Program-made: the position numbers and the translations under genes
Shown: positions 13,158 to 57,267 of the stretch, piece after piece
Layout of the letters: each line of letters opens with the position of its first letter
Position numbering within the stretch: the stretch's first letter is position 1
Notes under the pieces: generated by a model
Database searches by the model: none
Told to the model about the DNA's origin: nothing
The model's input: only the letters and a program-made list of their open reading frames with translations
DNA from: Candidatus Woesearchaeota archaeon
Lineage (GTDB): Archaea; Nanobdellota; Nanobdellia; SCGC-AAA011-G17; PNOQ01
Direction of reading: 5' to 3'
Length of the DNA stretch: 64,000 nucleotides
Assembly: GCA_964481835.1 (NCBI GenBank)
Contig: CAYZTT010000001.1
Location: 9,964 to 73,963 of the forward strand

Positions 13158-13253
13158 TTTTGTAGGATTTAGAATTTTAAGGGATATATAAATGTTATTA
13201 TGCGATTTTTGGAGAATAAAAAGCCTTTTAAGAATAATCCTTGTCCCCCATTT

Positions 13254-14369
13254 ATGGCAAACATGAAGCAAAATGTTCAAAATATTTTGGATTTGGCAGA
13301 CATCAAGCTAAATGGTGATCGGCCTTGGGACATAAAAGTTAGAAATCCCGGATTCTATTCAGGGGTTCTGGCAGGAGGGTCCCTTGCCCTTGGAGAATCT
13401 TACATGGATGGATGGTGGGAATGTGATAATCTTGATCAATTCTTCCATAGAATACTAAAGGCCAATTTAGATAAAAAAGTTGTAAACTTAAGACAACTTA
13501 TTTGGGCAGTTTTAAAGGCTAAATTAATTAATCGCCAGAGTAGATCTAGGGCGCATGTTGTTGGAGAAAAGCATTACGATGCAGGAAATGACCTTTACAG
13601 TTTGATGTTAGATAAGAGACTTACATATAGTTGCGGCTATTGGAAAAGTGCGAAAAACCTTAATAGTGCCCAAGAAGCCAAATTAGATTTGATTTGTAAA
13701 AAACTTGGGCTAAAAAAAGGAATGAGTGTTCTAGACATTGGCTGTGGCTGGGGGAGCTTTGCTAAATTTGCCGCGGAAAAATACAAGGTTAAGGTCGTGG
13801 GCATTACAGTTTCTAAAGAGCAAGTAAAACTTGGAAGAGAAATATGTAAGGGTTTGCCTGTTGAAATAAAGTTGCAAGATTATCGGAGTTTAAGAGGCAA
13901 ATATGATAGGATAGTTTCTGTGGGCATGATTGAACATGTCGGTTGCAAGAATTATAGAAAATACATGAAGGTTGCAAACCGATGTTTAAAGAAAGATGGT
14001 TTATTCTTATTGCATACCATTGGAGGAAACGTGTCTGTAAATGGTGTGGACCCCTGGATAGATAAATATATTTTCCCGAATGGGATGTTGCCTTCTGTAA
14101 AACAACTTTCAAAGGCAAGTGAGGGTCTGTTTGTCATGGAAGATTGGCATAATTTTGGGACGGATTACGATAAAACCTTGATGGCATGGCATAAGAACTT
14201 TATAGAAGATTGGGATAAAATAAAGGATAAATATAATGCAAGATTTTTTAGAATGTGGGAATATTATCTTTTATGCTGTGCAGGCTCATTTAGGGCTAGA
14301 AAAAATCAATTGTGGCAGATTGTATTCTCCAAAGATGGTTTAAAAGAGGGTTATCGGAGCATACGGTAG
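13254..14369 (+). CDS. cfa: Cyclopropane-fatty-acyl-phospholipid synthase family SAM-dependent methyltransferase (bacterial type)
   Basis: Long collinear similarity to E. coli Cfa as I recall it: DIKVRNPGFY...GESYMDGWWECDNLD, VLDIGCGWG SAM motif, RIVSVGMIEHVG, LLHTIG, VDPWIDKYIFPNGMLPS, FVMEDWHNFGTDYDKTLMAW, YYLLCCAGSFRAR, LWQIVFS. Confidence 0.85.
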   Translation: MANMKQNVQNILDLADIKLNGDRPWDIKVRNPGFYSGVLAGGSLALGESYMDGWWECDNLDQFFHRILKANLDKKVVNLRQLIWAVLKAKLINRQSRSRAHVVGEKHYDAGNDLYSLMLDKRLTYSCGYWKSAKNLNSAQEAKLDLICKKLGLKKGMSVLDIGCGWGSFAKFAAEKYKVKVVGITVSKEQVKLGREICKGLPVEIKLQDYRSLRGKYDRIVSVGMIEHVGCKNYRKYMKVANRCLKKDGLFLLHTIGGNVSVNGVDPWIDKYIFPNGMLPSVKQLSKASEGLFVMEDWHNFGTDYDKTLMAWHKNFIEDWDKIKDKYNARFFRMWEYYLLCCAGSFRARKNQLWQIVFSKDGLKEGYRSIR

Positions 14370-16969: not shown

Positions 16970-18199
16970 ATGCTATTAACTCAAATAATAATACTGATTG
17001 TACTCATCTTTCTGTCTGCATTCTTTTCTGGAATTGAAACTGCCTTGGTTTCCTTGAATATGGTTAAAGTTAGGGCACTGGTTAAGCAGAAGAAACGAGG
17101 ATCAAAGGCGCTGTTTAGATTAAAACAAGACCCCCATAAGATGATAATTACAATTCTAATTGGAAATAATCTTGTTAATATTGGTGCGGCATCATTTGCA
17201 ACGGTAGTTTTTACTCAGCTTTTTGGCTCTAGCGGTGTTGGAATAGCTACTGGAGTTATGACTTTCCTTATCTTGGTATTTGGAGAAATTACTCCAAAAA
17301 CACTTGCTTCCCAGAATGCAGAAAAAGTATCACTAGCAGTTGCGAAACCTGTAGAGGTTCTCTCTTATGCTTTATCCCCCTTGGTCTATATTTTTGGTTT
17401 GATTGCAAAATTGGCTACCAAGCTGTTTGGAGGGGATAAAGAAAAACTTTCTGAAGAAGAATTAAGGACTATTGTGACAATGGGCCGGAGGGAGGGGATA
17501 TTGAGTAGAGAATCCGCGGATATGATGCATAATGTTTTGAAATTTGAAGGTACAAGGGCCACCCAAATTATGACACCTCGGTTGGAAATTGAGATGTTAA
17601 ATGCAGAAGATACCCTGGGGAAGGTAATTGATTTTGTTGCAAAGAGCCCTTATTCGAGATTCCCCGTTTATCATAAGAATAAAGATAACATTATTGGCAT
17701 TGTGGATGTTGATGATATCCTTACTTATGTCAAAGATAATAGAATGGGGGTAAGGGTGAGAAGATTGAAGAAACATGTCCACTTAGTTCCGGAGAGTGAA
17801 GAAATTGATGATATTTTGGAGCATTTTGAGGGAAGGCATGTTCCGATGGCCATTGTTAAAAATAAAAATAAAAAGGTTGTAGGATTAGTGACCGTAGAAG
17901 ATATTTTAGAGGAAATTGTAGGGGACATTTTTGATAAAAGTGAAAGGAAGAAAGCGAGGGTAAAAAGAATCAATAGGAAATTAATACGGGCAGATGCAAA
18001 GGCTTCTGTTGAAGAAATTAACAATCTCCTACATTTAGGAGTAAGAGTTAGGCACTTTGATACACTTGCAGGCTATCTCGAGAGGAAACTGGGAAGAGTT
18101 CCAAGAAAAGGGGAAAAAATTAAATTAAAGAAGGCTATTATTACTGTGCATAAAATTAGAGACCATAGGATAGAGAGCTTTAATATAAGGAAAGTTTAG
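16970..18199 (+). CDS. CNNM/CorC-HlyC family transporter (DUF21 membrane domain, CBS pair, CorC_HlyC C-terminal domain)
   Basis: The N-terminal DUF21 region has FFSGIETALVSLN and ILIGNNLVNI. It is followed by a CBS pair and a C-terminal transporter-associated domain. Confidence 0.8.
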   Translation: MLLTQIIILIVLIFLSAFFSGIETALVSLNMVKVRALVKQKKRGSKALFRLKQDPHKMIITILIGNNLVNIGAASFATVVFTQLFGSSGVGIATGVMTFLILVFGEITPKTLASQNAEKVSLAVAKPVEVLSYALSPLVYIFGLIAKLATKLFGGDKEKLSEEELRTIVTMGRREGILSRESADMMHNVLKFEGTRATQIMTPRLEIEMLNAEDTLGKVIDFVAKSPYSRFPVYHKNKDNIIGIVDVDDILTYVKDNRMGVRVRRLKKHVHLVPESEEIDDILEHFEGRHVPMAIVKNKNKKVVGLVTVEDILEEIVGDIFDKSERKKARVKRINRKLIRADAKASVEEINNLLHLGVRVRHFDTLAGYLERKLGRVPRKGEKIKLKKAIITVHKIRDHRIESFNIRKV

Positions 18200-26637: not shown

Positions 26638-26958
26638 TTGGCAAATAGTATTGGCGGTTGGGCATTTCTGATTGGTGTTCTTCTTGCAATAATCTTAGCA
26701 TTCTTTTCTGATATGGCTTCTTTTGCATGGATCATAGTGGTTCTAGGTCTTATTATTGGATTGTTAAATATTAGTGAGGGCGAAACACAGAAATTCTTGA
26801 TGGCAGGAGTAATACTTGTTATTGTGGGTGCGCTTGCAGGAAACATGTTTGCATCAATAATGTACCTGACTGACATCTTTAACAATTTGGTAGCCCTATT
26901 TGCTCCAGCAGTTGTTGTTGTAGCACTTAAGTCTGTTTTTGAAATGGCTAAGAAATAA
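26638..26958 (+). CDS. Small membrane protein (3 TM)
   Basis: 106 aa, hydrophobic, with no motif. Confidence 0.3.
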   Translation: MANSIGGWAFLIGVLLAIILAFFSDMASFAWIIVVLGLIIGLLNISEGETQKFLMAGVILVIVGALAGNMFASIMYLTDIFNNLVALFAPAVVVVALKSVFEMAKK

Positions 26959-27087
26959 AAAACTTAGTCTTTTTTTCTTATTTTTTAGTAACTATCTATC
27001 AGTAGCAAAAATAGTAAGATTTATAAACAGTTAGATTGTCCTATATTCTACATAATATATATTATAACACGGGGGTTATATTCAAAA

Positions 27088-28524
27088 ATGAAAAAATCAA
27101 CCATTGGAAAAGGACTTTTAGTTTTAGGAGGTGTAGCTTACGGTGCAGGCGCTTCTGCAGATGATGCTACAGTTACTTCAGTTTCAGAAGATTTAGACAC
27201 AAGGGGCGGGGTTGTTTCCACTGATCCTTTGCCGGATGGTGCAGCTTTGCCGGATGGCGTTGTATTAAATGATGATAATATTGGTTCAAATTCAGAGGGA
27301 GATTCTCCTCATGCGCCTATTTGTGGACCCACTGGAGAGCCAATTCCTCTGGGCCCAGTATATGATATCGGCGACGGATGTTGCACCGCTGCAGAATCTC
27401 AAGATCCTGCTTCTGGCGGAGATCAAACTTCTCCAGTAAAATGGAGTCCTTTATTCTCACAGCCTGATTCTATGGTTTGGTATTTCCAAACTAAAGGTGG
27501 AGAAAAATTCCCAATACCTACTGATGGCTTGGGAGGAAATCCCGCTGGAGATGGGATGTCTGGTCAAGAACTAATAAACCATTTGTATCAATCCTCAGCA
27601 GATAGCTTGGGCATTAGTGGCCCTTGGACAAGTTTGGATGATTCTACACAGGCATTAATTGCAGGATGTGCATATGAGATTGGAAAGGATATGGGTATAT
27701 GTGTTGATAATACATATGCAACAAATGATTCTACTAGACAACAAATTGTTGCTAGACGGCCAACCTCAGATTCATTGGAGGCGGAACTTAGAAGGAATGC
27801 TAGATTAGAGGGTCTTGCTGCTGCAGCAGACTCTACTGAAGGTAGAGAACCTGAAGATGAAGGCAAGGACAAGCCAGATTCTGGAAATGGATCTGATGAT
27901 GTACCTGGTCCAGGAGATTCAACAGAAGGCAAAGAATCGGAAGCAATGAGATATTTCAGAGCAACATCCCTTATATACAAAAATACTGGGGCTGCAGTTG
28001 ATGCATTCATTGGAAATGCTGCCGCAAAATTTGGTATTGGCGGGGGTGTTTCATACAATGGAGTGAGAAATGCTTCAACTACAACTGATTCTAGCTCAGT
28101 TAGGTATAATAATCCTCTTGGTTTCTCCGAGGAAGGGAGTGTTATAGATACTGAGACTGGATTAGGGAACTTGGTTCTGACATTCCCAAGATTAAGTCTT
28201 AATGTTGGGAGAGTTACACTTACAGGAATGCTGGACCACTATCAGATAGAAGAATCTAAATCTGGATTAGCTTTCGTGAGAAATGTTGTTGATGGTATTC
28301 AAGAAGACTATGATGATGAAAGGATACCTGAAACAAGCAAATCTGCTTGGAAATCAAGTTGGGGTGCCGGAGCAGATGTTAGAATAAAGGGTAACTGGGG
28401 AATCGCTGGAAAATACAGTGGTTTCAACAAGAAAGGTTCCCTCGGTGTTTCATATACTTGGGGACAAAGTAGAAATGGAAACCTAAAAGCTGCAGAAGCA
28501 AAAAGAGCAGCGAGGGGGAATTAA
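27088..28524 (+). CDS. Secreted G/D/S/T-rich protein with C-terminal amphipathic beta-strand-rich (porin/beta-barrel-like) domain
   Basis: Signal peptide MKKSTIGKGLLVLGGVAYGAGASA. Acidic/Gly-rich N-terminal half with CGPTGEP and DGCC motifs. The C-terminal ~200 aa has alternating hydrophobic patterns (GNLVLTFPRLSLNVGRVTLTG, GADVRIKGNWGIAGKYSGF, GSLGVSYTWGQ). G+C and amino-acid usage are unlike the flanks. Confidence 0.45.
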   Translation: MKKSTIGKGLLVLGGVAYGAGASADDATVTSVSEDLDTRGGVVSTDPLPDGAALPDGVVLNDDNIGSNSEGDSPHAPICGPTGEPIPLGPVYDIGDGCCTAAESQDPASGGDQTSPVKWSPLFSQPDSMVWYFQTKGGEKFPIPTDGLGGNPAGDGMSGQELINHLYQSSADSLGISGPWTSLDDSTQALIAGCAYEIGKDMGICVDNTYATNDSTRQQIVARRPTSDSLEAELRRNARLEGLAAAADSTEGREPEDEGKDKPDSGNGSDDVPGPGDSTEGKESEAMRYFRATSLIYKNTGAAVDAFIGNAAAKFGIGGGVSYNGVRNASTTTDSSSVRYNNPLGFSEEGSVIDTETGLGNLVLTFPRLSLNVGRVTLTGMLDHYQIEESKSGLAFVRNVVDGIQEDYDDERIPETSKSAWKSSWGAGADVRIKGNWGIAGKYSGFNKKGSLGVSYTWGQSRNGNLKAAEAKRAARGN

Positions 28525-28525
28525 A

Positions 28526-29836
28526 ATGAATAAACTAATACCATTTGTATTAATCTTTTTATTTTCTGCATTTATGGCAGCTGGACTTCCAGATTTAATT
28601 GCTTTAGATTCAGAATGGGTAGACGAATATGGACAACCCATTGGAAATAGTGTTAGTGTGTATCAAGGAGAGCCTGTTGAATATTACATGATGATTGTAA
28701 CGGATAGTGACGTTATTGGATATAAGGTATGGCTAACTCAAAATGGACATGCAATAGATACTATAACTCCGCATACTAATATTAATGATAATCATTATTT
28801 TGCATATGAGGCAATCGATACTTCAAGTTATGCTCCCGGAGACTATACTGTAAAGGTTGGGGCAAATAATGATGGTGTCGAAAATGCTTATGATGAGACC
28901 AGATATTTATATCTAGAAATTTTACCTATAGAGGAAGTTAACGAACCTCCATATACTCCGAGTAATCCTAGCCCAGTGGACGGGCAGACAGCAGTAGGTA
29001 CAGAAGGTGTCATGTTGGTTTGGACAGGTGGAGATCCTGATGGAGATGAGGTTACTTATGATGTCTTATTTGGGGAAGATGGAGAACTTATGACCCTAAT
29101 AGCGGAAGATATAAGTGAAACCTTTTTCTGGAATGACGAGAACTTAGATTTCGAAACTTCATATAACTGGATGATTGTTTCCAAAGATTCTGAGTTTGAC
29201 ATTGCAGGTTATGTCTGGAGTTTCACAACCAGGGCAGAGGATGTTGAAGAAAATCATGACCCTGTGATTGAGAATATTGAGAATCAACGAGCTAAATGTA
29301 ACCGAAACTTTAGGTTATGGGTTGATGTAGATGATGAGGATAACGATGACTTAACATTCTACGACAATACAGACTTATTTAATATTGATTCGGAAACAGG
29401 AGAGATTTCATTTAAACCAGATTGTAGTGATAGGGGAACTTACCACATCACAATCACAGTAGTTGATGAACATGGTGGAGAGGATAGTGAAACATTTAGA
29501 CTAAGGATTTATAGGGAGGGCTCAGGTGACGATGATGACGATGATGATGGAGACAACATTGAAAGTGTTATTGAATACGGAGAATGTATTGAGGACAATG
29601 ATGGAGATAATCTGGGCATAAGGCAAGTAATCTACACCTTGTTAGATAGCAACAGTGGAGGATTCATATCTGTTCAATCTTCACAAGAGATTTGTCAATT
29701 GGTAGTTGACGAGATTCCTGTTTATGAATTCAGGGGATTTTTAGAAGATGAGCTGGTTACAGTGATCCTGGTTATCATTATTTTCTTGATGATAACGATT
29801 CCATTGGCATTATATGTATTTAATAAACTATCTTAG
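28526..29836 (+). CDS. Cell-surface acidic adhesin-like protein with cadherin-like/Ig-like repeats and C-terminal TM anchor
   Basis: It has a signal peptide. The segment TFYDNTDLFNIDSETGEISFKPDCSDRGTYHITITVVDEHGGEDSETFRLRI is cadherin-like. It has a DDDDDDDGDN acidic run and the C-terminal TM VTVILVIIIFLMITIPLALYVF. It starts 2 nt after the upstream stop. Confidence 0.5.
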   Translation: MNKLIPFVLIFLFSAFMAAGLPDLIALDSEWVDEYGQPIGNSVSVYQGEPVEYYMMIVTDSDVIGYKVWLTQNGHAIDTITPHTNINDNHYFAYEAIDTSSYAPGDYTVKVGANNDGVENAYDETRYLYLEILPIEEVNEPPYTPSNPSPVDGQTAVGTEGVMLVWTGGDPDGDEVTYDVLFGEDGELMTLIAEDISETFFWNDENLDFETSYNWMIVSKDSEFDIAGYVWSFTTRAEDVEENHDPVIENIENQRAKCNRNFRLWVDVDDEDNDDLTFYDNTDLFNIDSETGEISFKPDCSDRGTYHITITVVDEHGGEDSETFRLRIYREGSGDDDDDDDGDNIESVIEYGECIEDNDGDNLGIRQVIYTLLDSNSGGFISVQSSQEICQLVVDEIPVYEFRGFLEDELVTVILVIIIFLMITIPLALYVFNKLS

Positions 29837-29868
29837 TTTATTTAAACCTCTAATTCTTTCTTTTTGTT

Positions 29869-39027: not shown

Positions 39028-39873
39028 TTATTCTTCAATATCGTCAAGGACATTTCTCACTTTTTTTAGTTGCTCTTTTGATACATGCGTGTAAATTTGA
39101 GTAGTAGACAGATCCGAATGGCCAAGTAACTCCTGAATTATTCGTATATCTACTCCTGCATCTAGATTGTGGGTGGCAAAGGAGTGCCTTAGTTTGTGTG
39201 CAGTCACCTTTTTGCTTATTTTTGCCAATTTTGCGGTATTTGATATTATTTTTTGAACATTTCTTGCCGAAAGGTGATCTTTTTTCCCAGGAAAGAGATA
39301 TTGTTCTCTTTCGTCTATTGTTTGTATATATTTCTTAATTTCATGTGTTAGTTTCTCTGATAAGAAAAATGCCCTATCTTTTCCGCCTTTTCCAGATCTG
39401 ACCCACCCCATGCCATTTTCTAATTCAATATCCATGATCTTTAGGTTTACACATTCACTCACCCTCAACCCAGTGGAGTATAGTAGTCTCATAATCAATA
39501 GGGATTTTTTTGAAGGAGCTCTTTCAAACAATCTCCTTACTTCTTCTTTTGTTAGGAATATCGGTATTGACTTGGGGATTTTTGGAGTTTTTAGATTTAC
39601 TATACTCATCCCCATAACTTCATGGAAAAAGAACTTTAATGCCGCCTTCTTTACTGCGATGGATCTGGGAGCATGATCTGAGTCGGAAACTAAATATGCA
39701 AAATATTCTTTGATATCTTCTTCAAGAATTTGGGGAGGATGCCTATCTTCAGGAAGATTCTTATTTACATGATTTAGAAAAAGTTTGACATTTTGGACAT
39801 ATGATTCTCTTGTTCTTTGAGAGAACCCCCTTAATTTCATTTCAGTAACTAGCCTTTTTAGACAAATCCCCAT
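39028..39873 (-). CDS. Tyrosine site-specific recombinase (XerA/XerC/D-like integrase)
   Basis: N-terminal SAM-like core-binding domain. The catalytic residues are R (GLRVSE), K, HxxR (HKLRHSFAT), R and Y (LGHSDLSTTQIYTHV). 281 aa. Confidence 0.85.
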   Translation of the reverse strand: MGICLKRLVTEMKLRGFSQRTRESYVQNVKLFLNHVNKNLPEDRHPPQILEEDIKEYFAYLVSDSDHAPRSIAVKKAALKFFFHEVMGMSIVNLKTPKIPKSIPIFLTKEEVRRLFERAPSKKSLLIMRLLYSTGLRVSECVNLKIMDIELENGMGWVRSGKGGKDRAFFLSEKLTHEIKKYIQTIDEREQYLFPGKKDHLSARNVQKIISNTAKLAKISKKVTAHKLRHSFATHNLDAGVDIRIIQELLGHSDLSTTQIYTHVSKEQLKKVRNVLDDIEE

Positions 39874-49914: not shown

Positions 49915-50178
49915 TTAGATTATGTCTTCTTCGGCAACAACTATAAAATCACCGATTGCGATTACTGCGCTAAAAGGAATTAATAATCGTCCTTCGTCTG
50001 TTCTTTCCAAATCTAAATTAGAAGCAAGTGATGTTGGACTTTTCAGTTCAAGCTGCAATAGTTCTCCTGTTTTTGTTTCAAAATGAATATTTCCTAAATC
50101 TCCAAATTTCTTTCCAGTCTTACTAACTATTGTTTTTCCAAGAAGATGTTTTGAATATCTTTTATCATTATTTGACAT
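49915..50178 (-). CDS. PRC-barrel domain protein
   Basis: 87 aa. LLGKTIVSKTGKKFGDLGNIHFETKTGELLQL is the typical PRC-barrel core. Confidence 0.45.
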   Translation of the reverse strand: MSNNDKRYSKHLLGKTIVSKTGKKFGDLGNIHFETKTGELLQLELKSPTSLASNLDLERTDEGRLLIPFSAVIAIGDFIVVAEEDII

Positions 50179-50228
50179 TTTAGGGGCCTCCTTAAATAAG
50201 GGAGTATTATCTGCTTTATAAAATTTTC

Positions 50229-50540
50229 TTAATCTACTTCTAGGGCATTAGCCAATGTTTCTCTTAATTCTTCAAATGAAGACTTTATACTGTTCTTTAT
50301 TTCTACTATAAGTGGTTCATCATTAACTGATTGGGCAATAGATGCTCCCGTTTGGATATATTCATTATCTGATTGTATTGCTTGATCAACAGACAGACTG
50401 CCCATTATTGTAAAAAATAAAATCATTACTATAATAGCAATTACAATTAATTTTAATGCAGTTCTTGTGAATAAATGTTTAGATATTTCTAAGACTATTA
50501 CCCCTACTACTATTATAATAATAATTGATATTATATCCAT
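50229..50540 (-). CDS. Small membrane protein
   Basis: 103 aa with two TM helices. Confidence 0.3.
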   Translation of the reverse strand: MDIISIIIIIVVGVIVLEISKHLFTRTALKLIVIAIIVMILFFTIMGSLSVDQAIQSDNEYIQTGASIAQSVNDEPLIVEIKNSIKSSFEELRETLANALEVD

Positions 50541-51003
50541 ATCAATATAATAAGAGTTTTTATTTATAAGGTTTTTTATGGCTGAATAAATCGGGGACTC
50601 CCACCCCTATTTCTATTGGAATTATTGTATTTATGGATGTGATGGGTATTTCATATGGAATTATTTTTTAAGGTATTTTTTGTATGGGGTTTTACGTGTG
50701 TTTAAGTGTATTTTTATTGATTTTTAGTAAAAATTTTTATGTTTCAAATTTATGGTTTAGAAGTCTTGAAAGTGAAGAATTTGATTATATATTATATATT
50801 ATATTTATAAGTTTTATTATTATATATATATTATATTATTATATATATATTTTATAGTGTTACTATTGAAAAGTTTCTATAGGAAGAAGGGGTGTACCCA
50901 TCTGCAAACATGAATCAAGAAAGTTCCATTGGAAATATAGGTCCGTGTCTCTATTTTTTAGTATAGCAATATTTATAATCATAATTTATCAGTCGTTTTT
51001 AAG
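50541..51003. other. Predicted chromosomal replication origin (oriC) with ORB-like repeats and AT-rich unwinding element
   Basis: A 460-bp non-coding region sits immediately upstream of orc1/cdc6. It holds three copies of a (t)tcyatTGGAAt core: 50611-50624 tttctattggaatt, 50651-50663 ttcatatggaatt, and the palindromic 50923-50936 gttccattggaaat. A (ta)n-type AT tract lies at ~50784-50858, and a G-string ggggactcccacccc at 50594-50608. Confidence 0.6.
50971..50978 (+). promoter_or_regulatory. TATA-box-like element for orc1/cdc6 (leaderless spacing)
   Basis: atttataa lies ~26 nt upstream of the ATG at 51004. Confidence 0.3.
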
Positions 51004-52221
51004 ATGACTAAATCAGATATTAATGAATTTTTTGAAGATTATTTGAGTAAGGACGGGTTATTTAGGGATAAGAAAGTATTGCAATCTAGTTACACTCCAG
51101 ATAACATACCTCACAGGGATGCAGAGATAAAAGAAATTGCGAGTATGATGGCGCCTGCACTTAGGGGAGAAAAACCTTCTAATTTATTTTTATATGGGAA
51201 AACTGGGACTGGGAAGACTCTTTCTGTATTGCATGTTGTTGAAAAGTTAAGGAAAATTGCTAAGCAAAAGAATATTAATATGATTATACACACTTTAAAT
51301 TGTAAATTAAAAAAAGTTGCAGATACTGAATATAGGTTGATTTCTAACTTGGCTAGACATTTTGGAGAAGATGTACCTGTTACGGGGTTGGCAACTGATG
51401 AAATCTATAAAAGATTTATAGATAGTATAGATAGTATAGATAATAAAAACCAAAATATAATTTTAGTATTGGATGAAATAGATCAATTAGTTAAAAAAGC
51501 AGGAGATGAGATATTATATAATTTAACAAGGTTAAATTCTGAGCTGAAAAATACACAAATTACATTTGTAGGAATTTCTAATGATTTAAGATTTGCAAAT
51601 GATTTGGATCCAAGGGTAAAATCTTCATTAACTGAAGAAGATATTAATTTCCCATCTTACAATGCACTCCAGTTACAAGACATTTTGAATGAACGAGCAA
51701 AAAATGCATTCAAAGAAGGAAGAATAGAACAAGGCGCAATAGAAAAGTGTGCTGCATTAGCGGCTAGGGAGCATGGAGATGCTAGGAGGGCATTAGATTT
51801 ACTTAGGGTTGCTGGAGAACTCTCTGAGAGGAAAGGATCGGACAAATTATTGATAAATCATATTGATGAAGCAGAAGATAAAATCGAGAGAGACTTAGTT
51901 TCAGATGTAGTGAGTACCTTACCAAAACAATCGCAATTAGTTCTTTTAGCGGCTTTTAGATTATATGGGAAGGATAATTCTAAAATATTTACTGGAGATG
52001 TATATGATTTGTATAAAACTTTATCTTCAAATGTAGGCTTAAAACCATTAACACAGAGAAGGATGTCTGATTTGATTGCAGAATTGGATATGTTGGGAAT
52101 AATAAATGCCAAAGTAATTAGCAAAGGCAGGTATGGTAGGACAAGAGAAATTAGTATGTCCATCCCAGATACAGAGGTTCCAGAATTGATGGGTGCATTA
52201 ACAAAATGGCTGAATCTGTAA
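51004..52221 (+). CDS. cdc6: Orc1/Cdc6 replication initiator
   Basis: AAA+ Walker A YGKTGTGKT, Walker B VLDEID, a C-terminal winged-helix domain, 405 aa. Confidence 0.9.
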   Translation: MTKSDINEFFEDYLSKDGLFRDKKVLQSSYTPDNIPHRDAEIKEIASMMAPALRGEKPSNLFLYGKTGTGKTLSVLHVVEKLRKIAKQKNINMIIHTLNCKLKKVADTEYRLISNLARHFGEDVPVTGLATDEIYKRFIDSIDSIDNKNQNIILVLDEIDQLVKKAGDEILYNLTRLNSELKNTQITFVGISNDLRFANDLDPRVKSSLTEEDINFPSYNALQLQDILNERAKNAFKEGRIEQGAIEKCAALAAREHGDARRALDLLRVAGELSERKGSDKLLINHIDEAEDKIERDLVSDVVSTLPKQSQLVLLAAFRLYGKDNSKIFTGDVYDLYKTLSSNVGLKPLTQRRMSDLIAELDMLGIINAKVISKGRYGRTREISMSIPDTEVPELMGALTKWLNL

Positions 52222-53699
52222 AAGGTATCATTAAGATATTTTTAGATAGGGGATATTTGATCGATCCTGGGTTAATAGATGGGATTGATCTAGATAGCGA
52301 ATTTATTGATAAAAATTTAGAATCAAATGACAGTGGCGAATTATTAATGTTTAATAAAACAATGATGGCTAAACTTCTTGCAAAAAATACCAGTGTCGAA
52401 TTAGAAAAACCATTAATGGAAAAAGATAATGGTCTAAGGCCGTTTAAGATAGTAAAATCTTTTGATAAGAAACCTAGGAAGGTCCAAGTTCAAGATTTTG
52501 TAACACATTATGTAAATCGTTACAACACCTTAAGAACAATACTTCAAAATAGGAATGCATTAATTGCTCCCCTATCTATAAGCAGGATTTTAACAAAGAG
52601 GGAGAGGGATAATGTATCTACTATAGGATTAGTTTATGGAAAGAGGTATACAAAAAATAATAATTTAATTTTAAGATTAGAGGATAATACCGGAACAATA
52701 AATGTGTTAATTAATAGTAATAAACAAGAACTTTTTGAGAAATGCAAAGACATAGTGTTGGATGAGGCAATTGGAGTAAAAGGATCCAATGGAGAAAAAA
52801 TAATTTTTGCTGATGAAGTTTTCTTCCCTGATGTGGTTTTAGGGGGAAAAGAGATGAAAAAATCTGAGAAGGAAGAATATGCCGCCTTCATATCTGATTT
52901 GCATGTTGGTTCTAAGATGTTCTTAGAGGATCAATTTTTAGATTTTATAAAATGGATAAATGGCGAGACTGGTTCTTCTGAACAAAAGGAGATATCTAAA
53001 TCTGTAAAATATCTTTTTGTTATTGGGGATATTGTGGATGGAATTGGCATATATCCCAATCAAGAAGGGGAGTTAAATGTTTTCGATTTGGAGGAACAAT
53101 ACAAATTATGTGCAGAGTTATTGGGAAAGATTCGTAAGGACGTTCAAATTTTTATTTGCCCTGGAAATCATGATGCAATTCGGTTGGCAGAACCTCAACC
53201 TATATTTGATAAGAATATGGCTGAAAGTTTATATAACTTGCAGAATGCAACATTGGTATCTAATCCGGCTACAATAAATATAGGGTCCTATGAAGGATTT
53301 TCTGGGTTTGATGTATTGTTGTATCATGGATATTCATTTGACTATTATATTGACCAAATAGAAAGTATTAGGTTTGGAGGGGGGTATGATAGGGGAGATC
53401 TAGTGATGAAATTTTTACTCCAGAAGAGGCATTTGGCTCCTTCCCATGGATCTACACCCATAATTATTGATACCGATGAAGATAATTTGATTATAGATAA
53501 AGTGCCTGATTTTTTTGCTTCAGGGCATATCCATAAAACTAGTATAAGCAATTATGGAAAAACGACTATGATATCTGGGAGTTGTTGGCAGAGTAGAACA
53601 ACATTTCAGGATAAAGTAGGACACCATCCTGAACCGGGAAGGGTCCCAATTATTAATCTTAAGACTAGGGATGTAAAACTGATGAAATTTTGTGACTAA
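52206..53699 (+). CDS. DNA polymerase II (PolD) small subunit DP1, calcineurin-like phosphoesterase/exonuclease
   Basis: N-terminal OB region, then phosphoesterase motifs GDIVDG, GNHD and GH.H. Its start overlaps the cdc6 stop. Confidence 0.85.
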   Translation: MAESVKGIIKIFLDRGYLIDPGLIDGIDLDSEFIDKNLESNDSGELLMFNKTMMAKLLAKNTSVELEKPLMEKDNGLRPFKIVKSFDKKPRKVQVQDFVTHYVNRYNTLRTILQNRNALIAPLSISRILTKRERDNVSTIGLVYGKRYTKNNNLILRLEDNTGTINVLINSNKQELFEKCKDIVLDEAIGVKGSNGEKIIFADEVFFPDVVLGGKEMKKSEKEEYAAFISDLHVGSKMFLEDQFLDFIKWINGETGSSEQKEISKSVKYLFVIGDIVDGIGIYPNQEGELNVFDLEEQYKLCAELLGKIRKDVQIFICPGNHDAIRLAEPQPIFDKNMAESLYNLQNATLVSNPATINIGSYEGFSGFDVLLYHGYSFDYYIDQIESIRFGGGYDRGDLVMKFLLQKRHLAPSHGSTPIIIDTDEDNLIIDKVPDFFASGHIHKTSISNYGKTTMISGSCWQSRTTFQDKVGHHPEPGRVPIINLKTRDVKLMKFCD

Positions 53700-56600
53700 A
53701 ATGGAAGATAAATCAATGGAGAGATACTTTAAGAGTTTTGACAAATATATTGAGAAATCTTATTCCTTGGCCGACCAAGCTAGAGCCAGGGGATTGGACC
53801 CTGTCAATCAGGTTGAAATTCCACTTGCAAAGAATATGGCAGAGAGGGTCGAAGGACTAATTAGTGTTGCTGCCCCTCAGTTAGGCGGCTCAGGTGTTAG
53901 TGAGAGGATACTTGAATTGGAGAAGGAACATGGGACCCAACATCCGATTATAGCCTTTTTCTTGGCAGAAGAGGTGGCAAAACAAAAATTCTGCAAGTTT
54001 GATAATGAAAAAGATGCCATAGAAATTGGCTTGAGAGTGGGGTTGGCTTACATTACTAATGGGGTTGTGGCTTCTCCTCTGGAAGGATTTGTTAGACTAG
54101 AGCTAAAAGATACGATGGATGGAAAAGGAAAATATTTTGCTCTTTATTTTGGGGGGCCGATACGTAGTGCAGGTACTACTGCCACCTGTTTTTTCGTTGC
54201 GTGTGCAGATTATGTGCGGAGAAAAATGGGATATCTTCCTTACGACCCTACTGAAGATGAAATTAGTAGAACTTTTTCTGAATTAGATTTTTTTCATGAT
54301 AGAATTACAAATTTACAATATATGCCATCCCAAGAAGAGGCAACATATATTACAAAAAATCTCCCCCTTCAAATTGATGGAGATGGTAGTGAGAGATTGG
54401 AGGTTCCAAATTATAAGGATCTCCCTAGAGTAAAATCAAATATACTTAGGAATGGTTTTTGTCTGGTTTATGGAGAATCTTTAGCTTTGAAATGGAAAAA
54501 ATTTTGGGGGAAATTTTCTAAGTGGTGTGATCGTGTAGACATGGAAGACTGGAAATTTGTAGAAGGTTTTGTAAAGCTTCAAGAAAAGATTCGAGCTAAG
54601 AGCACAATAAAAAAGGACTCGGGAGAGGATAAGGTTTTGCCAGATTTTGGATTTATTAAAGATCTTGTTGCAGGGAGACCCGTGTTTGGACACCCATTAA
54701 AACCTGGAGGATTTAGATTGAGGTATGGTAGGTCTAGGATGTCGGGGTTTTCTGTTGATGGATTGCATCCTGCTACGATGGTTGTACTGGACGGGTATGT
54801 GGCTTCTGGAACCCAATTAAAACCTGAGAGGCCTAAGAAGGGGAATACCGTAATTTCTTGTGATTCTATTGAGGGACCAATTGTGCGGTTGAAAAATGGA
54901 AACGTAATTCGTTTAGAGGATGAGGAAACTGCGAAAAAACATAATTTGGATGTTGAAGAGGTCTTGTATCTTGGAGATATATTGGTAGATTATGGGGATT
55001 TTTTAGATAGGGGATCTATGCTTTACCCTCCAGGATATTGTGAAGAATGGTGGTTTAAAGAGTTAGAATCTAAGAATAAATCCCCGGAGGAGATTAATAA
55101 ATTAACTGGGATATCCTTGCCCAACCTGAAGGAAACATTTAGTAACCCAATGCAAACTAAATTATCTGCTGAAGATTGCTTTAAACTTTCTAAAGAATTG
55201 AAGATACCTTTACATCCAAAATATACTTTTCACTGGAAGGGGATCAAGGTTAAAGAATTTTTAGTTCTAGTTCACTGGTTATCCCGGTCTGTTTTGAAAA
55301 AAGAGGAGAAAAAAGTAATTTTGCCATTAGATTATGAGGTGGAAGGATATGAATCTCCAAAAAGAGTTCTTGAACTATTGGGGGTGCCTCATTCTATTGT
55401 GCACCGAGAACATATATTGGTTGAAGGAGAGTGGTCTATTGCCCTTATGGCAAATTTAGGATTATTTGATAAGGAGTCTAAATTTAAGGAAATGGTATCC
55501 TATACCTCAGATAAGAAAAATGTTTTGGGGATTGTGAATAAATTTTCGGATATAGCCATCAAAGATAAATCAGGGATATTTATTGGAGCTAGAATGGGAA
55601 GACCAGAGAAAGCAAAGATGAGGAAATTAACTGGAAGCCCACATTCTTTATTTCCTGTTGGTGAAGAAGGGGGGAGACTTAGATCTTTTCAATCTGCAAA
55701 AGAAATGGGGAGAATAATATCGGATTTCCCTACATATATTTGTAATGGGTGTGGTAAACAGGGGGCCTATAATGTCTGCCCATATTGTGGATCTTTAGAT
55801 ATGAAGAAGATGTTTTATTGTCCGAGATGTGATAAATCAACTGAAGAAGAGAAATGCTCTAAACATCCTCTTGAAAATGGACAAACCGAACATCTAGATA
55901 ACCAGGTGTATAGTCGTAAGGAGATTGACATAAGAGAATATCTAGATTTTGCCATGAAAAAACTAGAGCTTGGGGAACTCCCCCCTTTAGTGAAGGGAGT
56001 TAGGGGAACCTCCAATAAAGAGCACATACCTGAAAATTTAGTTAAGGGGATACTAAGATCGATACACGATATTTATGTTAATAAGGATGGGACGACTAGG
56101 TATGATATGACTGAGATGGCGTTAACACATTTTAGACCATCTGAGATAAGAACCCCTGTAGAAAAACTTAAGGAGTTGGGATATGAACATGATATATATG
56201 GGGAGGAATTGACAAGAGATGATCAAATATTAGAATTAAAGGCACAGGATATTGTTTTGCCTGCATCTCCAGATTCTCCGGATGAGGGGGCAGATGTAAT
56301 TTTATTTAAAGTAACTAAGTTTATTGATGATCTACTTGAGAAATTTTATGGTGTTGAAAAATTCTACAATTTGAAAACTAGATTGGATTTAGTGGGGCAT
56401 ATGGCTATAGGTCTGAGCCCCCATACTTGTGCAGGAATTGTGTGTAGAATTATTGGGTTTTCTAAAATGCAAGGATTAGTTGCACACCCTTATCTACATT
56501 CTATTATGCGTAGAGATTGCGATGGGGATGAAGCAGGCGTTATGATGATGATGGATGCACTCCTTAATTTTTCTAGGAAACTGCTTGGGGGACATAGGGG

Positions 56601-57267
56601 GGCAACACAAGATGAACCACTAGTTTTAACATCTCATCTATTGCCTACTGAGGTTGACGATCAAGTGTATAGTATGGGTATTGCTTGGGAATACCCCCTA
56701 GAATTTTATGAGGCATGTGAAAAATATAAATATCCCTGGGATGTAAAAATAGATACTGTCCAAACAAATATAGATAAAGGAAAACCTTACTCTGGGTTTG
56801 GGTTTACACATAATACTAGTGATATTAATTCTGGGGTGTTATGTAGTTCGTATAAATTATTGCCAACAATGAAAGAGAAGGTAGATGGCCAGATGTATCT
56901 GGCCACCAAACTAAGATCTGCGGACAGAGACGACGTTGCAAGGTTAGTTATCGAGAGACATTTTATTAGGGATTTGAAGGGAAACCTGCGTAAATTTAGT
57001 ATGCAACAATTTAGGTGTGTTGATTGTAATGAGAAGTTTAGAAGACCTCCTTTAGTTGGCAAATGTACTAAATGTGGGGGGAGATTGTTATTTACCATTT
57101 CAGAAGGATCTGTAACTAAATACTTATTGCATATTCTTTTTTTAGCTAAACAATATAATTTGCCCCATTACTCGCAACAATCCATTGAGATATTGAATCA
57201 GAGAGTGGAAAGTGTTTTTGGGAAAGACCCAGAAAAACAAGAAGACTTGGGAAAATGGTTTAGCTAG
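53692..57267 (+). CDS. DNA polymerase II (PolD) large subunit DP2
   Basis: 1191 aa with the conserved DP2 zinc fingers (CNGCGKQGAYNVCPYCG; CVDCNEKFRRPPLVGKCTKCGG) and a catalytic double-psi barrel region. No intein is present. Its start overlaps the DP1 stop. Confidence 0.9.
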   Translation: MTKMEDKSMERYFKSFDKYIEKSYSLADQARARGLDPVNQVEIPLAKNMAERVEGLISVAAPQLGGSGVSERILELEKEHGTQHPIIAFFLAEEVAKQKFCKFDNEKDAIEIGLRVGLAYITNGVVASPLEGFVRLELKDTMDGKGKYFALYFGGPIRSAGTTATCFFVACADYVRRKMGYLPYDPTEDEISRTFSELDFFHDRITNLQYMPSQEEATYITKNLPLQIDGDGSERLEVPNYKDLPRVKSNILRNGFCLVYGESLALKWKKFWGKFSKWCDRVDMEDWKFVEGFVKLQEKIRAKSTIKKDSGEDKVLPDFGFIKDLVAGRPVFGHPLKPGGFRLRYGRSRMSGFSVDGLHPATMVVLDGYVASGTQLKPERPKKGNTVISCDSIEGPIVRLKNGNVIRLEDEETAKKHNLDVEEVLYLGDILVDYGDFLDRGSMLYPPGYCEEWWFKELESKNKSPEEINKLTGISLPNLKETFSNPMQTKLSAEDCFKLSKELKIPLHPKYTFHWKGIKVKEFLVLVHWLSRSVLKKEEKKVILPLDYEVEGYESPKRVLELLGVPHSIVHREHILVEGEWSIALMANLGLFDKESKFKEMVSYTSDKKNVLGIVNKFSDIAIKDKSGIFIGARMGRPEKAKMRKLTGSPHSLFPVGEEGGRLRSFQSAKEMGRIISDFPTYICNGCGKQGAYNVCPYCGSLDMKKMFYCPRCDKSTEEEKCSKHPLENGQTEHLDNQVYSRKEIDIREYLDFAMKKLELGELPPLVKGVRGTSNKEHIPENLVKGILRSIHDIYVNKDGTTRYDMTEMALTHFRPSEIRTPVEKLKELGYEHDIYGEELTRDDQILELKAQDIVLPASPDSPDEGADVILFKVTKFIDDLLEKFYGVEKFYNLKTRLDLVGHMAIGLSPHTCAGIVCRIIGFSKMQGLVAHPYLHSIMRRDCDGDEAGVMMMMDALLNFSRKLLGGHRGATQDEPLVLTSHLLPTEVDDQVYSMGIAWEYPLEFYEACEKYKYPWDVKIDTVQTNIDKGKPYSGFGFTHNTSDINSGVLCSSYKLLPTMKEKVDGQMYLATKLRSADRDDVARLVIERHFIRDLKGNLRKFSMQQFRCVDCNEKFRRPPLVGKCTKCGGRLLFTISEGSVTKYLLHILFLAKQYNLPHYSQQSIEILNQRVESVFGKDPEKQEDLGKWFS

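Follow-up and report, generated by a model that had tools for sequence, protein, structure and literature searches.

A lineage-restricted gene pair of a marine Woesearchaeota archaeon encodes a predicted OmpA-like β-barrel protein and an Ig-domain surface stalk

Transmembrane β-barrels of the outer membrane protein (OMP) type are considered a hallmark of diderm bacteria and of the organelles that descend from them. Small eight-stranded barrels have very narrow lumens and serve as anchors or adhesins rather than as efficient pores. In the inverse autotransporters intimin and invasin, a β-barrel membrane anchor is combined with an array of immunoglobulin (Ig)-like domains for cell attachment, and in the Tir-intimin system the receptor in the target membrane is provided by the attacker itself. 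To our knowledge, the molecules with which DPANN archaea attach to their hosts are almost entirely unknown, and we know of no Woesearchaeota for which a host has been identified. Some Woesearchaeota were proposed to attack bacteria and were called ‘vampiristic’ (PMC9723730), and the bacterial predator Bdellovibrio delivers PopA, a porin-like lipid-trapping protein that acts on prey membranes and may have a distant relative in the DPANN Altiarchaeales (PMC12228718). Here, we analysed a stretch of 64,000 nt from a Candidatus Woesearchaeota archaeon (the window; contig CAYZTT010000001.1, positions 9,964 to 73,963) and two adjacent genes in it, ORF1 and ORF2, which encode a secreted protein with a barrel-like C-terminal domain and a membrane-anchored Ig-domain protein. 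ORF1 and ORF2 almost certainly form a real, native and co-expressed surface cassette. The best explanation of the whole, to which we assign a probability of about 0.5, is a lineage-specific, co-transcribed cassette in which the ORF2 stalk holds ORF1 and the barrel mediates an attachment bridge.

The only Pfam family touched by ORF1 was OMP_b-brl (PF13505), with 13.3 bits (E 0.097) and with residues 306-450 aligned to positions 13-157 of the 175-position profile; the curated gathering threshold of this family is 28.7 bits. Two homologues also scored under this threshold, P0001 (17.6 bits, E 0.0045), for which OMP_b-brl was again the sole family match, and P0003 (11.1 bits, E 0.45); OMP_b-brl gave no match to P0002, P0004 and P0125. 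The threshold was passed by a 347-aa protein encoded at the same position upstream of an ORF2 homologue (L007:8965-10008, hereafter L007up), which reached 29.3 bits (E 1.2e-6) with a match extending to its C-terminus. Its relative P0127 reached 25.0 bits (E 2.4e-5) and also touched OmpA_membrane (E 0.055). By BLASTP, SLGVSYTWGQ in ORF1 was identical at 8 of 10 positions to the final strand of Escherichia coli OmpA, SLGVSYRFGQ (the OmpA sequence was verified against PDB entries 1QJP, 1BXW and 3NB3), and hhalign aligned the ORF1 domain profile with OmpA at the very end of both domains (probability 68%, E 4.8e-5). In addition, S-L-G-V-S-Y-T-W fits the β-signal pattern (polar-x-G-x-x-aromatic-x-aromatic), of which the Gly and the Tyr are not conserved in P0125. 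All subfamilies of the upstream protein mirror the OmpA transmembrane domain in length and composition (Gly 10-16%, Ser/Thr/Asn 18-26%, aromatics 10-14%, Cys about 0), and the ORF1 strands show, by inspection, hydrophobic residues interspersed with Gly or with small polar ones, the alternating pattern of membrane barrels.

The first-pass annotation, made from the sequence without database searches, had likened the C-terminal strands of ORF1 to bacterial outer-membrane or pore-forming domains, and structure prediction upheld the barrel part of this reading, as the last ~175 residues were modelled by AlphaFold2 (AF2) as an OMP-type barrel. For residues 286-478, a predicted local confidence (pLDDT) of 80.2 and a predicted TM-score (pTM) of 0.61 were obtained, and all five models lay between 75 and 80. 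The model is an all-β meander followed by a terminal helix; its predicted fold is a closed antiparallel up-and-down β-barrel of about eight strands. Model likeness figures were obtained for the N-terminal barrel of OprF (14.0), a Thermus outer-membrane protein (13.2), NspA (12.9), a Legionella OMP_b-brl protein (12.7), OmpW (12.7), OmpA (12.6) and PagL (12.6), and soluble eight-stranded barrels were somewhat lower (designed barrel 12.9, avidins ~10). Foldseek returned weak matches (E ~1e-3, TM-scores 0.25-0.46), almost all to membrane barrels, the best being KdgM, OmpX, Ail and OmpA (probabilities up to 1.00), with a few pore-toxin hairpins besides. Neither AF2 nor Foldseek indicated a β-sandwich or jelly-roll with S-layer or carbohydrate-binding homologues. 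The C-terminal domain of ORF1 thus probably adopts an OMP-type barrel fold, which is unexpected in an archaeon, and we infer that it is homologous to bacterial OMPs.

The same searches bear on two other functions for the domain. An oligomerising β-barrel pore-forming toxin that permeabilises a host membrane, as the first-pass annotation had proposed, would agree with the Foldseek matches to membrane attack complex (MAC), gasdermin, cholesterol-dependent cytolysin (CDC) and PlyB pores (E 0.01-0.02) and with the ‘vampiristic’ lifestyle proposed for Woesearchaeota (PMC9723730). These pore matches are weak, with TM-scores of at most 0.25; the model is a closed monomeric meander, unlike a soluble scaffold that carries one amphipathic hairpin; neither Pfam nor NCBIfam gave a match to a pore-forming-toxin family; and the lumen of an eight-stranded barrel is very narrow. 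Since the closest folds are small eight-stranded barrels of the anchor or adhesin type, permeabilisation is unlikely, and we regard a toxin as highly improbable. A soluble extracellular eight-stranded barrel (avidin-, lipocalin- or YceI-like) that binds a small hydrophobic ligand and is held at the surface by ORF2 is a less remote alternative, which we still consider unlikely; plausible ligands would be host lipids or isoprenoids scavenged by a lipid-auxotrophic DPANN cell. It would suit an archaeon without a known outer membrane, and porin-like barrels can serve as lipid traps, as PopA does (PMC12228718), but the sole Pfam signal is OMP_b-brl/OmpA_membrane, an OmpA-type last strand is present, and the alternation of hydrophobic with Gly or small polar residues is that of membrane barrels.

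ORF1 and ORF2 are conserved as a pair in related genomes. Every examined ORF2 homologue with the full C-terminal module was preceded by a secreted protein with a barrel-type C-terminal domain. This pairing was found in the interval next to radB that holds the pair in the window and in three other contexts (L041/L046, L042 and L048), that is, in at least four genomic contexts and five subfamilies. At the ORF2 homologues P0011 and P0012, the upstream proteins are P0125 and L007up, respectively; P0013, in a different context, is preceded by a 313-aa protein (L041:5016-5957, L041up), and P0016, in a third, by a 420-aa protein (L042:1478-2740). The fourth context came from a metagenome scan with the ORF2 C-terminal module, and its upstream gene (L048:1785-2969, 394 aa, L048up) overlaps that of its partner. 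The upstream partners are alike in having a signal peptide, a variable N-terminal part and a Gly/aromatic-rich C-terminal domain of 165-180 residues, with end strands of the aromatic-x-hydrophobic-G type (SYTWGQ, KRFGD, KLFGD, SFGWG, FKWRF and NFKIGG). An N-terminal segment of ~100 aa in P0125, P0127, L041up and L048up gave weak matches to coiled-coil families (E 0.0014-0.055), which suggests a coiled coil in this part of these proteins; the N-terminal part of ORF1 differs in consisting of an acidic region and a core with no coiled coil. The five subfamilies may be extremely diverged versions of one gene or the outcome of repeated replacement of the partner gene. A word-indexed search with the mixed C-terminal alignment A4 found only P0127. 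Distant metagenome matches that share only He_PIG with ORF2 (L049-L077) were rejected as members of the pair, as they are unrelated large adhesins without a barrel partner.

Homologues of ORF1 itself are confined to a narrow clade. A word-indexed search found four proteins, and a hidden Markov model (HMM) of ORF1 searched against 1.84 billion representative proteins added only P0125 (309 aa, E 1.5e-11, matching in the C-terminal domain only) and a 67-aa fragment. The ORF1 alignment found no relative in GTDB genomes, and PDB sequence searches with ORF1 or L007up gave no meaningful match. The 67-aa fragment, P0126, is from a metagenome; its first 36 residues are common with ORF1 and then diverge, and it probably represents an allele with a frameshift or truncation, or else a misassembly, in a different sample. 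In the literature searched, we found no published report of OMP-type barrels or porins in Woesearchaeota or other DPANN archaea beyond the passing remark on Altiarchaeales (PMC12228718), and no prior description of a pair like ORF1-ORF2, in agreement with the first-pass annotation. ORF1 and the proteins in equivalent positions constitute a previously undescribed family, restricted to one lineage, in which an archaeon is predicted to encode an OmpA-like barrel.

Both genes are genuine and native. Between the window and the related locus L001, the ratio of nonsynonymous to synonymous substitution rates (dN/dS) was 0.17 for ORF1 (values for its regions are given in Table 1) and 0.04 for ORF2, showing that both are genes under purifying selection and not chance open reading frames. 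The two genes had been described as tightly coupled, and one base separates the ORF1 stop codon (TAA, 28522-28524) from the ORF2 start codon; in all relatives, the two genes overlap by up to 8 nt or lie up to 29 nt apart. A Shine-Dalgarno (SD)-like element within the last codons of ORF1 suggests translational coupling. Upstream of ORF1, the TATA-box-like TTTATAAA is likely the promoter of a two-gene operon: the TATA box and the AAGA in front of it are kept upstream of the first gene in the window, L001, L003, L006 and L007, despite the unrecognisable divergence of the gene downstream. Both proteins are acidic and rich in Gly, Asp, Ser and Thr, as noted previously, with a net charge of -25 for ORF1 (G 13.8%, S 10.0%, D 8.4%) and -74 for ORF2 (D 11.7%, E 9.4%). 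By inspection, both N-termini resemble Sec signals: a Lys-rich n-region leads into a hydrophobic h-region, and the residues at -3/-1 are small. Putative signal peptides are assigned to both proteins, as the first-pass annotation had done.

That annotation had also ascribed a higher G+C content to both genes and had raised a foreign origin. The G+C content is raised in ORF1 only (0.429, compared with 0.369 in ORF2 and 0.30-0.40 in the neighbours), which is the G+C maximum of the window (0.423-0.429). Codon-position profiling placed the excess of ORF1 wholly in codon positions 1 and 2 (0.53 and 0.51), and the G+C content of third positions (GC3) was 0.244 in ORF1, 0.284 in ORF2 and 0.25-0.35 in the neighbours. 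The high G+C content of ORF1 is therefore due to its amino-acid composition and does not mark foreign DNA. Bacterial DNA brought in by mis-assembly or by very recent horizontal transfer might be suspected from the G+C peak and the OMP-like domain, but GC3 is at or below the genome level in both genes, the pair has the same archaeal neighbours in independently made assemblies of different samples, a 377-kb contig among them, and there is no bacterial homologue of ORF1 among the 1.84 billion representative proteins. Native GC3 and synteny across independent assemblies therefore rule against a chimera or a recent transfer, which we consider extremely improbable. A mobile-element origin was likewise rejected: the pair in the window is flanked neither by notable repeats, direct or inverted, nor by an integrase gene, and the nearest candidate, a XerA-like recombinase gene, is 9 kb away and conserved. 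This gene (39028-39873, - strand; Phage_integrase E 1.3e-45) encodes a tyrosine recombinase found at the same position in relatives (L007) and is probably a chromosome dimer resolvase, not a sign of a mobile element.

The window is archaeal, as shown by its genes for PolD DP1/DP2, LonB, Hef, RFC, HerA, RadB, CDC48 and Cdc6/Orc1. The suggestion of a small-genome archaeon was borne out: the source cell is a small-genome DPANN archaeon of a marine Woesearchaeota clade, and it is probably symbiotic. A PolB alignment against GTDB species representatives found 31 loci, nearly all in metagenome-assembled genomes of Candidatus Woesearchaeota or Nanoarchaeota, with a best identity of 76%. The order SerRS-TopA-RadB-[105-aa membrane protein]-122-aa Zn-ribbon protein-CDC48-Dus-M24-PolB-Fen1 is widely kept in the Woesearchaeota group. 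ORF1 and ORF2 have radB on one side and the 105-aa gene on the other, an arrangement shared by at least six independent assemblies that derive from several samples and include contigs of 94 kb and 377 kb. This interval (bounded in the window by 26959-27087 and 29837-29868) is a variable cargo slot across Woesearchaeota (L011, L012, L018, L033 and L039). In the closest reference genomes (GTDB; L039 and L033) the slot is empty and radB adjoins the 105-aa gene; in further relatives it holds unrelated cargo, namely MetK (L012), an ABC transporter (L018) and a Na/Ca exchanger (L011). The pair is therefore accessory cargo in a variable slot and not core envelope. The 105-aa membrane protein (26638-26958) was excluded from the module, since relatives without the pair have it as well.

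The accessory status of the pair bears on a further alternative, in which the pair is an ordinary envelope or S-layer-associated component without a role between cells, and the barrel is a generic β-rich fold or an over-prediction by AlphaFold. The shallow alignment of 7 sequences, the failure of the full-length model, the lack of sequence links among the subfamilies and the great abundance of ORF2-type proteins with fibronectin type III (FN3), PKD and Ig domains in free-living archaea, e.g. Thermoplasmatota, would all be expected under this explanation. The absence of the pair from the closest references (L039 and L033) does not fit a core envelope component, the pLDDT of 75-80 in all five AF2 models and the independent sequence signals that point to OMP families do not fit an over-prediction, and the combination of fast-evolving tip and linkers with a conserved barrel is typical of interaction proteins. 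We regard an ordinary envelope component, too, as unlikely.

ORF2, which is 100% identical to P0006, is best read from its domains as an ordinary modular archaeal surface protein. Its signal peptide is followed by a β-rich tip that is probably Ig/E-set-like; the tip gave only weak matches (Y_Y_Y, SigLec-like, InlK_D3 and TcfC E-set, E 0.04-0.14) and varies among distant homologues (20-39% identity). The next module is FN3-like and is common to most of 716 database matches, many of them from Thermoplasmatota, which carry PF25788 (Ig_Rha78A_N) or fn3. An hmmscan of ORF2 itself listed neither fn3 (PF00041) nor PF25788; the closest homologues carry precomputed fn3 matches, and the FN3-like copy of L041 matched Ig_Rha78A_N (E 6.6e-10) and fn3 (E 4.9e-5). 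The number of FN3-like copies (period ~101 residues) is one in the window, two in P0007, P0010 and P0011, three in P0005 and P0009 and four in P0008. As strains that differ in copy number are otherwise 57-82% identical, the length of the ORF2 stalk is polymorphic.

The Ig domain of ORF2 was the basis for the cadherin/dystroglycan-like repeat of the first-pass annotation. The motifs quoted in that annotation (GSLGVSYTWGQ in ORF1, and VVDEHGGEDSETFRLRI and DDDDDDDGDN in ORF2) are all present, and an Ig domain of the cadherin/dystroglycan type (He_PIG/Big_9), an acidic run and a C-terminal hydrophobic anchor (residues ~406-430) were recovered. The domain scored 23.8 bits with Big_9 (cutoff 23.6), 23.0 with He_PIG (cutoff 24) and 17.5 with Cadherin (cutoff 28.8), and the matches of residues 246-328 to Cadherin, Cadherin_5 and PKD were all sub-threshold. 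The same domain in relatives clearly passes He_PIG (L042, 43.9 bits, E 3.3e-11; L048, 32.2 bits, E 1.5e-7). A single Ig domain without tandem repeats and with a sub-threshold Cadherin profile is not a classical cadherin repeat, in which Ca2+-binding linker motifs (DxD, DxNDN, LDRE) separate tandem copies. Acidic runs of varying length occur in all ORF2 homologues, and the poly-Asp run of ORF2 appears to be a low-complexity stretch rather than a cadherin Ca2+ site. The membrane-proximal domain has no family match, and its two Cys residues are invariant (C113 and C149 of alignment A7).

The remaining parts of ORF1 evolve very differently from one another. Residues M1-K8 are nearly invariant among homologues, and the only hydrophobic segment is the weak Gly-rich h-region of the signal peptide: elsewhere no KD19 window exceeds 1.6, and there is no lipobox Cys. 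The acidic region (residues 25-120) is fast-evolving, with 14-18% identity to P0003 and P0004 and pLDDT below 35 in the full-length model. The core that follows is 97% identical to P0002 and 83% identical to P0003, is the sole stretch with pLDDT of 60-71 in that model and has no match in Pfam, NCBIfam or PDB. Cys residues had been reported in the N-terminal half, and those at positions 79, 98, 99, 194 and 205 are indeed there, though they are not invariant in homologues. The motif GSLGVSYTWGQ had been taken for the end of the protein; the barrel-like strands stand, but a conserved basic tail of 18 residues lies beyond it, which corresponds to helix 178-191 of the domain model (low pLDDT). Within the tail, GNLKAAEAKRAARGN (residues 464-478, 28477-28521) is 94-100% identical in P0001, P0002 and P0004, the last of which is only 41% identical overall. 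Both P0003 and P0125 lack it, and the acidic runs of their ORF2 partners are shorter (n = 5); we offer as a lead that the basic tail of ORF1 might dock electrostatically on the acidic run of ORF2. The two copies of a 20-nt direct repeat in ORF1 (28146-28165 and 28251-28270; 75% identity) are 105 nt apart and code for DTETGL and ESKSGL in predicted barrel strands; the repeat may be the trace of a hairpin duplication or due to chance.

Taken together, these results suggest the following arrangement. ORF2 would be a membrane-anchored stalk made up of an Ig tip, an FN3-like spacer, the He_PIG/Big_9 domain, the acidic run, a small disulfide-type domain and the transmembrane (TM) helix. ORF1, exported by the Sec route and without an anchor of its own, would be retained at the cell surface by this stalk. 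Its barrel would engage a lipid bilayer, by association or insertion, for which the membrane of a partner or host cell is the most plausible candidate, and the two proteins together would form an attachment bridge rather than a lytic pore. Membrane insertion, the interaction of ORF1 with ORF2 and the role in host attachment are all parts of this proposal. Host attachment by the pair is plausible, although we hold only tentatively that the cassette is a membrane-engaging attachment device. A role of ORF1 on a foreign membrane is conceivable by analogy with the attacks on bacteria and the prey-directed porin cited above (PMC9723730; PMC12228718).

Several points weigh against this explanation and should be read with it. 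ORF1 is well under the OMP_b-brl threshold (13.3 against 28.7 bits), its hhalign match to OmpA spans 18 columns only, and a PDB sequence search with the ORF1 domain profile (A3) found no OMP. The aromatic terminal strand does not close the protein, as 20 residues (459-478) follow it. The AF2 domain alignment contains 7 sequences, one of them OMP_b-brl-like, and the full-length model of ORF1 (5-sequence alignment) had a pLDDT of 31.9 and was unusable. Attempts to link the five subfamilies by jackhmmer and hhalign gave no cross-matches, with hhalign probabilities of at most 5%, so that their relatedness rests on context and architecture. We know of no outer membrane and no β-barrel assembly machinery (BAM) in archaea of this lineage. 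Omp85/BamA was absent from the scanned ORFs of the 64-kb window, a small part of the genome. Finally, both the contact between ORF1 and ORF2 and the host cell are hypothetical.

A more specific scenario is that this marine Woesearchaeota clade domesticated a bacterial-type OmpA-like barrel, which is secreted without BAM and enters a partner's membrane, perhaps the outer one of a diderm bacterium, where the co-encoded, fast-evolving Ig/FN3 stalk grasps it as a self-supplied receptor like that of Tir-intimin. We consider this scenario speculative and rather unlikely; if true, it would give archaea their first functional barrel of the OMP type. A conserved and rapidly diversifying cassette of an OmpA-like barrel and an adhesin-like stalk is a concrete candidate for an attachment apparatus. 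It also hints that the partner membrane may be bacterial and raises the question of how a β-barrel is used without BAM. Should the barrel prove soluble, the cassette would remain a candidate module for lipid scavenging in a lineage that is auxotrophic for lipids.

Table 1. Positions of the ORF1-ORF2 locus features in the window (res, residues)
Feature	Position	Strand	Remarks
TATA-box-like TTTATAAA	27020-27027	+	AAGA (transcription factor B recognition element-like) in front; 61-68 nt upstream of ORF1 start
SD-like GGGGG (ORF1)	27071-27075	+	12 nt upstream of ATG; GGGGG/GAGG kept in relatives
ORF1	27088-28524	+	478 aa; secreted, without membrane anchor of its own
ORF1 signal peptide	27088-27159	+	res 1-24, MKKSTIGKGLLVLGGVAYGAGASA followed by DD; Lys-rich n-region, Gly/Leu/Val h-region, A-S-A cleavage motif; by inspection
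ORF1 acidic Gly/Pro/Asp-rich low-complexity region	27160-27447	+	res 25-120; net charge -15; dN/dS 0.37
ORF1 lineage-specific core	27448-27792	+	res 121-235; partly helical; dN/dS 0.05
ORF1 acidic linker	27793-27942	+	res 236-285; 30% Asp+Glu; dN/dS 0.71
ORF1 predicted OmpA/OmpX-like β-barrel domain	27943-28467	+	res 286-460; last strand SLGVSYTWGQ; dN/dS 0.08
ORF1 basic C-terminal tail	28468-28521	+	res 461-478, SRNGNLKAAEAKRAARGN; predicted helix
SD-like GAGGGGG (ORF2)	28512-28518	+	within last ORF1 codons
ORF2	28526-29836	+	436 aa; type-I membrane-anchored, highly acidic multi-Ig surface protein
ORF2 signal peptide	28526-28588	+	res 1-21; KD19 up to 2.24; kept in P0005, P0008
ORF2 distal tip, β-rich	28589-28930	+	res 22-135
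ORF2 FN3-like repeat, single	28931-29233	+	res 136-236, PPYTPSNPSP...DPDGD...WSFTT
ORF2 He_PIG/Big_9/cadherin-like Ig domain	29234-29518	+	res 237-331; best-conserved ORF2 domain
ORF2 poly-Asp run	29519-29560	+	SGDDDDDDDGDN; GAT/GAC repeat at 29527-29556
ORF2 membrane-proximal domain	29561-29740	+	res 346-405; Cys 354, 390
ORF2 TM helix and short cytoplasmic tail (YVFNKLS)	29741-29833	+	KD19 up to 3.07, windows starting 402-418; conserved

Further observations were made on the locus and its surroundings. In the interval 29837-29868, a T-rich stretch precedes the element TTTATTTAAA, which is ~28 nt from the downstream radB ATG (29869), and its position suggests that the radB transcript is leaderless and that the ORF1-ORF2 operon ends there; ORF1, in contrast to radB, has a leader of ~40 nt with an SD-like element. 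An antisense ORF of 156 aa inside ORF1 (27588-28058, - strand) is most likely a by-product of the odd codon-position composition of ORF1 and not a gene. The G+C minimum of the window (0.262, at ~50000-51000) lies directly upstream of cdc6/orc1, which is followed by the genes for PolD DP1 and DP2 (the whole set at 51004-52221 and 52206-57267, both + strand); the low-G+C stretch is probably the chromosomal replication origin. A protein with CNNM, CBS and CorC_HlyC domains (16970-18199, + strand) adjoins Fen1 in all relatives. Its family appears as ‘tlyC/K03699 pore-forming toxin’ in the case made for ‘vampiristic’ Woesearchaeota (PMC9723730), and this label deserves caution for the protein of the window, because its domain set is that of CorC-type Mg/Co transporters. 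The window also encodes a cyclopropane-fatty-acyl-phospholipid-synthase-like (CMAS) methyltransferase (13200-14369, + strand; Pfam E 3.4e-91). Characterised CMAS members act on bacterial-type acyl lipids; if the protein of the window did so too, this would suit a cell that handles bacterium-derived membranes.

In comparison with described systems, ORF1 comes closest to the eight-stranded OMPs of bacteria (the N-terminal domain of OmpA, OprF, OmpX/Ail, NspA and OmpW; PF13505 and PF01389), with which it shares a domain of ~170 aa, a Gly/aromatic/Ser-Thr-Asn composition and a Sec signal. The likeness to OmpA extends to a nearly identical final strand, and one positional equivalent (L007up) is above the Pfam threshold. 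Unlike bacterial OMPs, ORF1 is sub-threshold and comes from an archaeon without a known outer membrane or BAM, has an 18-residue basic tail beyond its last strand and is always paired with the gene of an Ig-domain stalk. Furthermore, in OmpA the barrel comes first and the periplasmic domain after it, whereas the barrels described here are C-terminal and lie behind a long acidic or coiled-coil part. In this order, P0125, P0127, L041up and L048up (signal peptide, putative coiled-coil segment and C-terminal barrel-type domain) resemble the OmpM/SlpA tethers of diderm Firmicutes, Deinococcus and Thermus; they differ from them in the much smaller barrel, the absence of an SLH domain and the archaeal host, and the N-terminal part of ORF1 is not a coiled coil. 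ORF2 resembles the FN3/PKD/He_PIG surface proteins of archaea and the adhesin-like proteins of DPANN in its PPYxPxNPxP...DPDGD...WxFxT module, found in hundreds of proteins, in its He_PIG/Big_9 domain and in its TM anchor, but its tip, its juxtamembrane Cys domain and its obligatory upstream barrel partner belong to this Woesearchaeota clade only. PopA of Bdellovibrio, compared with ORF1 by description only, is a pentameric, larger, porin-like assembly of a diderm bacterium, and it provides a precedent for an OMP-type barrel of a predator or epibiont that acts on the membrane of another cell (PMC12228718). Intimin and invasin join barrel and Ig array in one polypeptide, whereas here they are divided between two; the barrel has about 8 and not 12 strands, and we know of no Big_1 or LysM domain and no sequence similarity. 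With Tir-intimin the analogy is functional only: if the barrel sat in a partner's membrane and the stalk took hold of it there, the principle would be similar.

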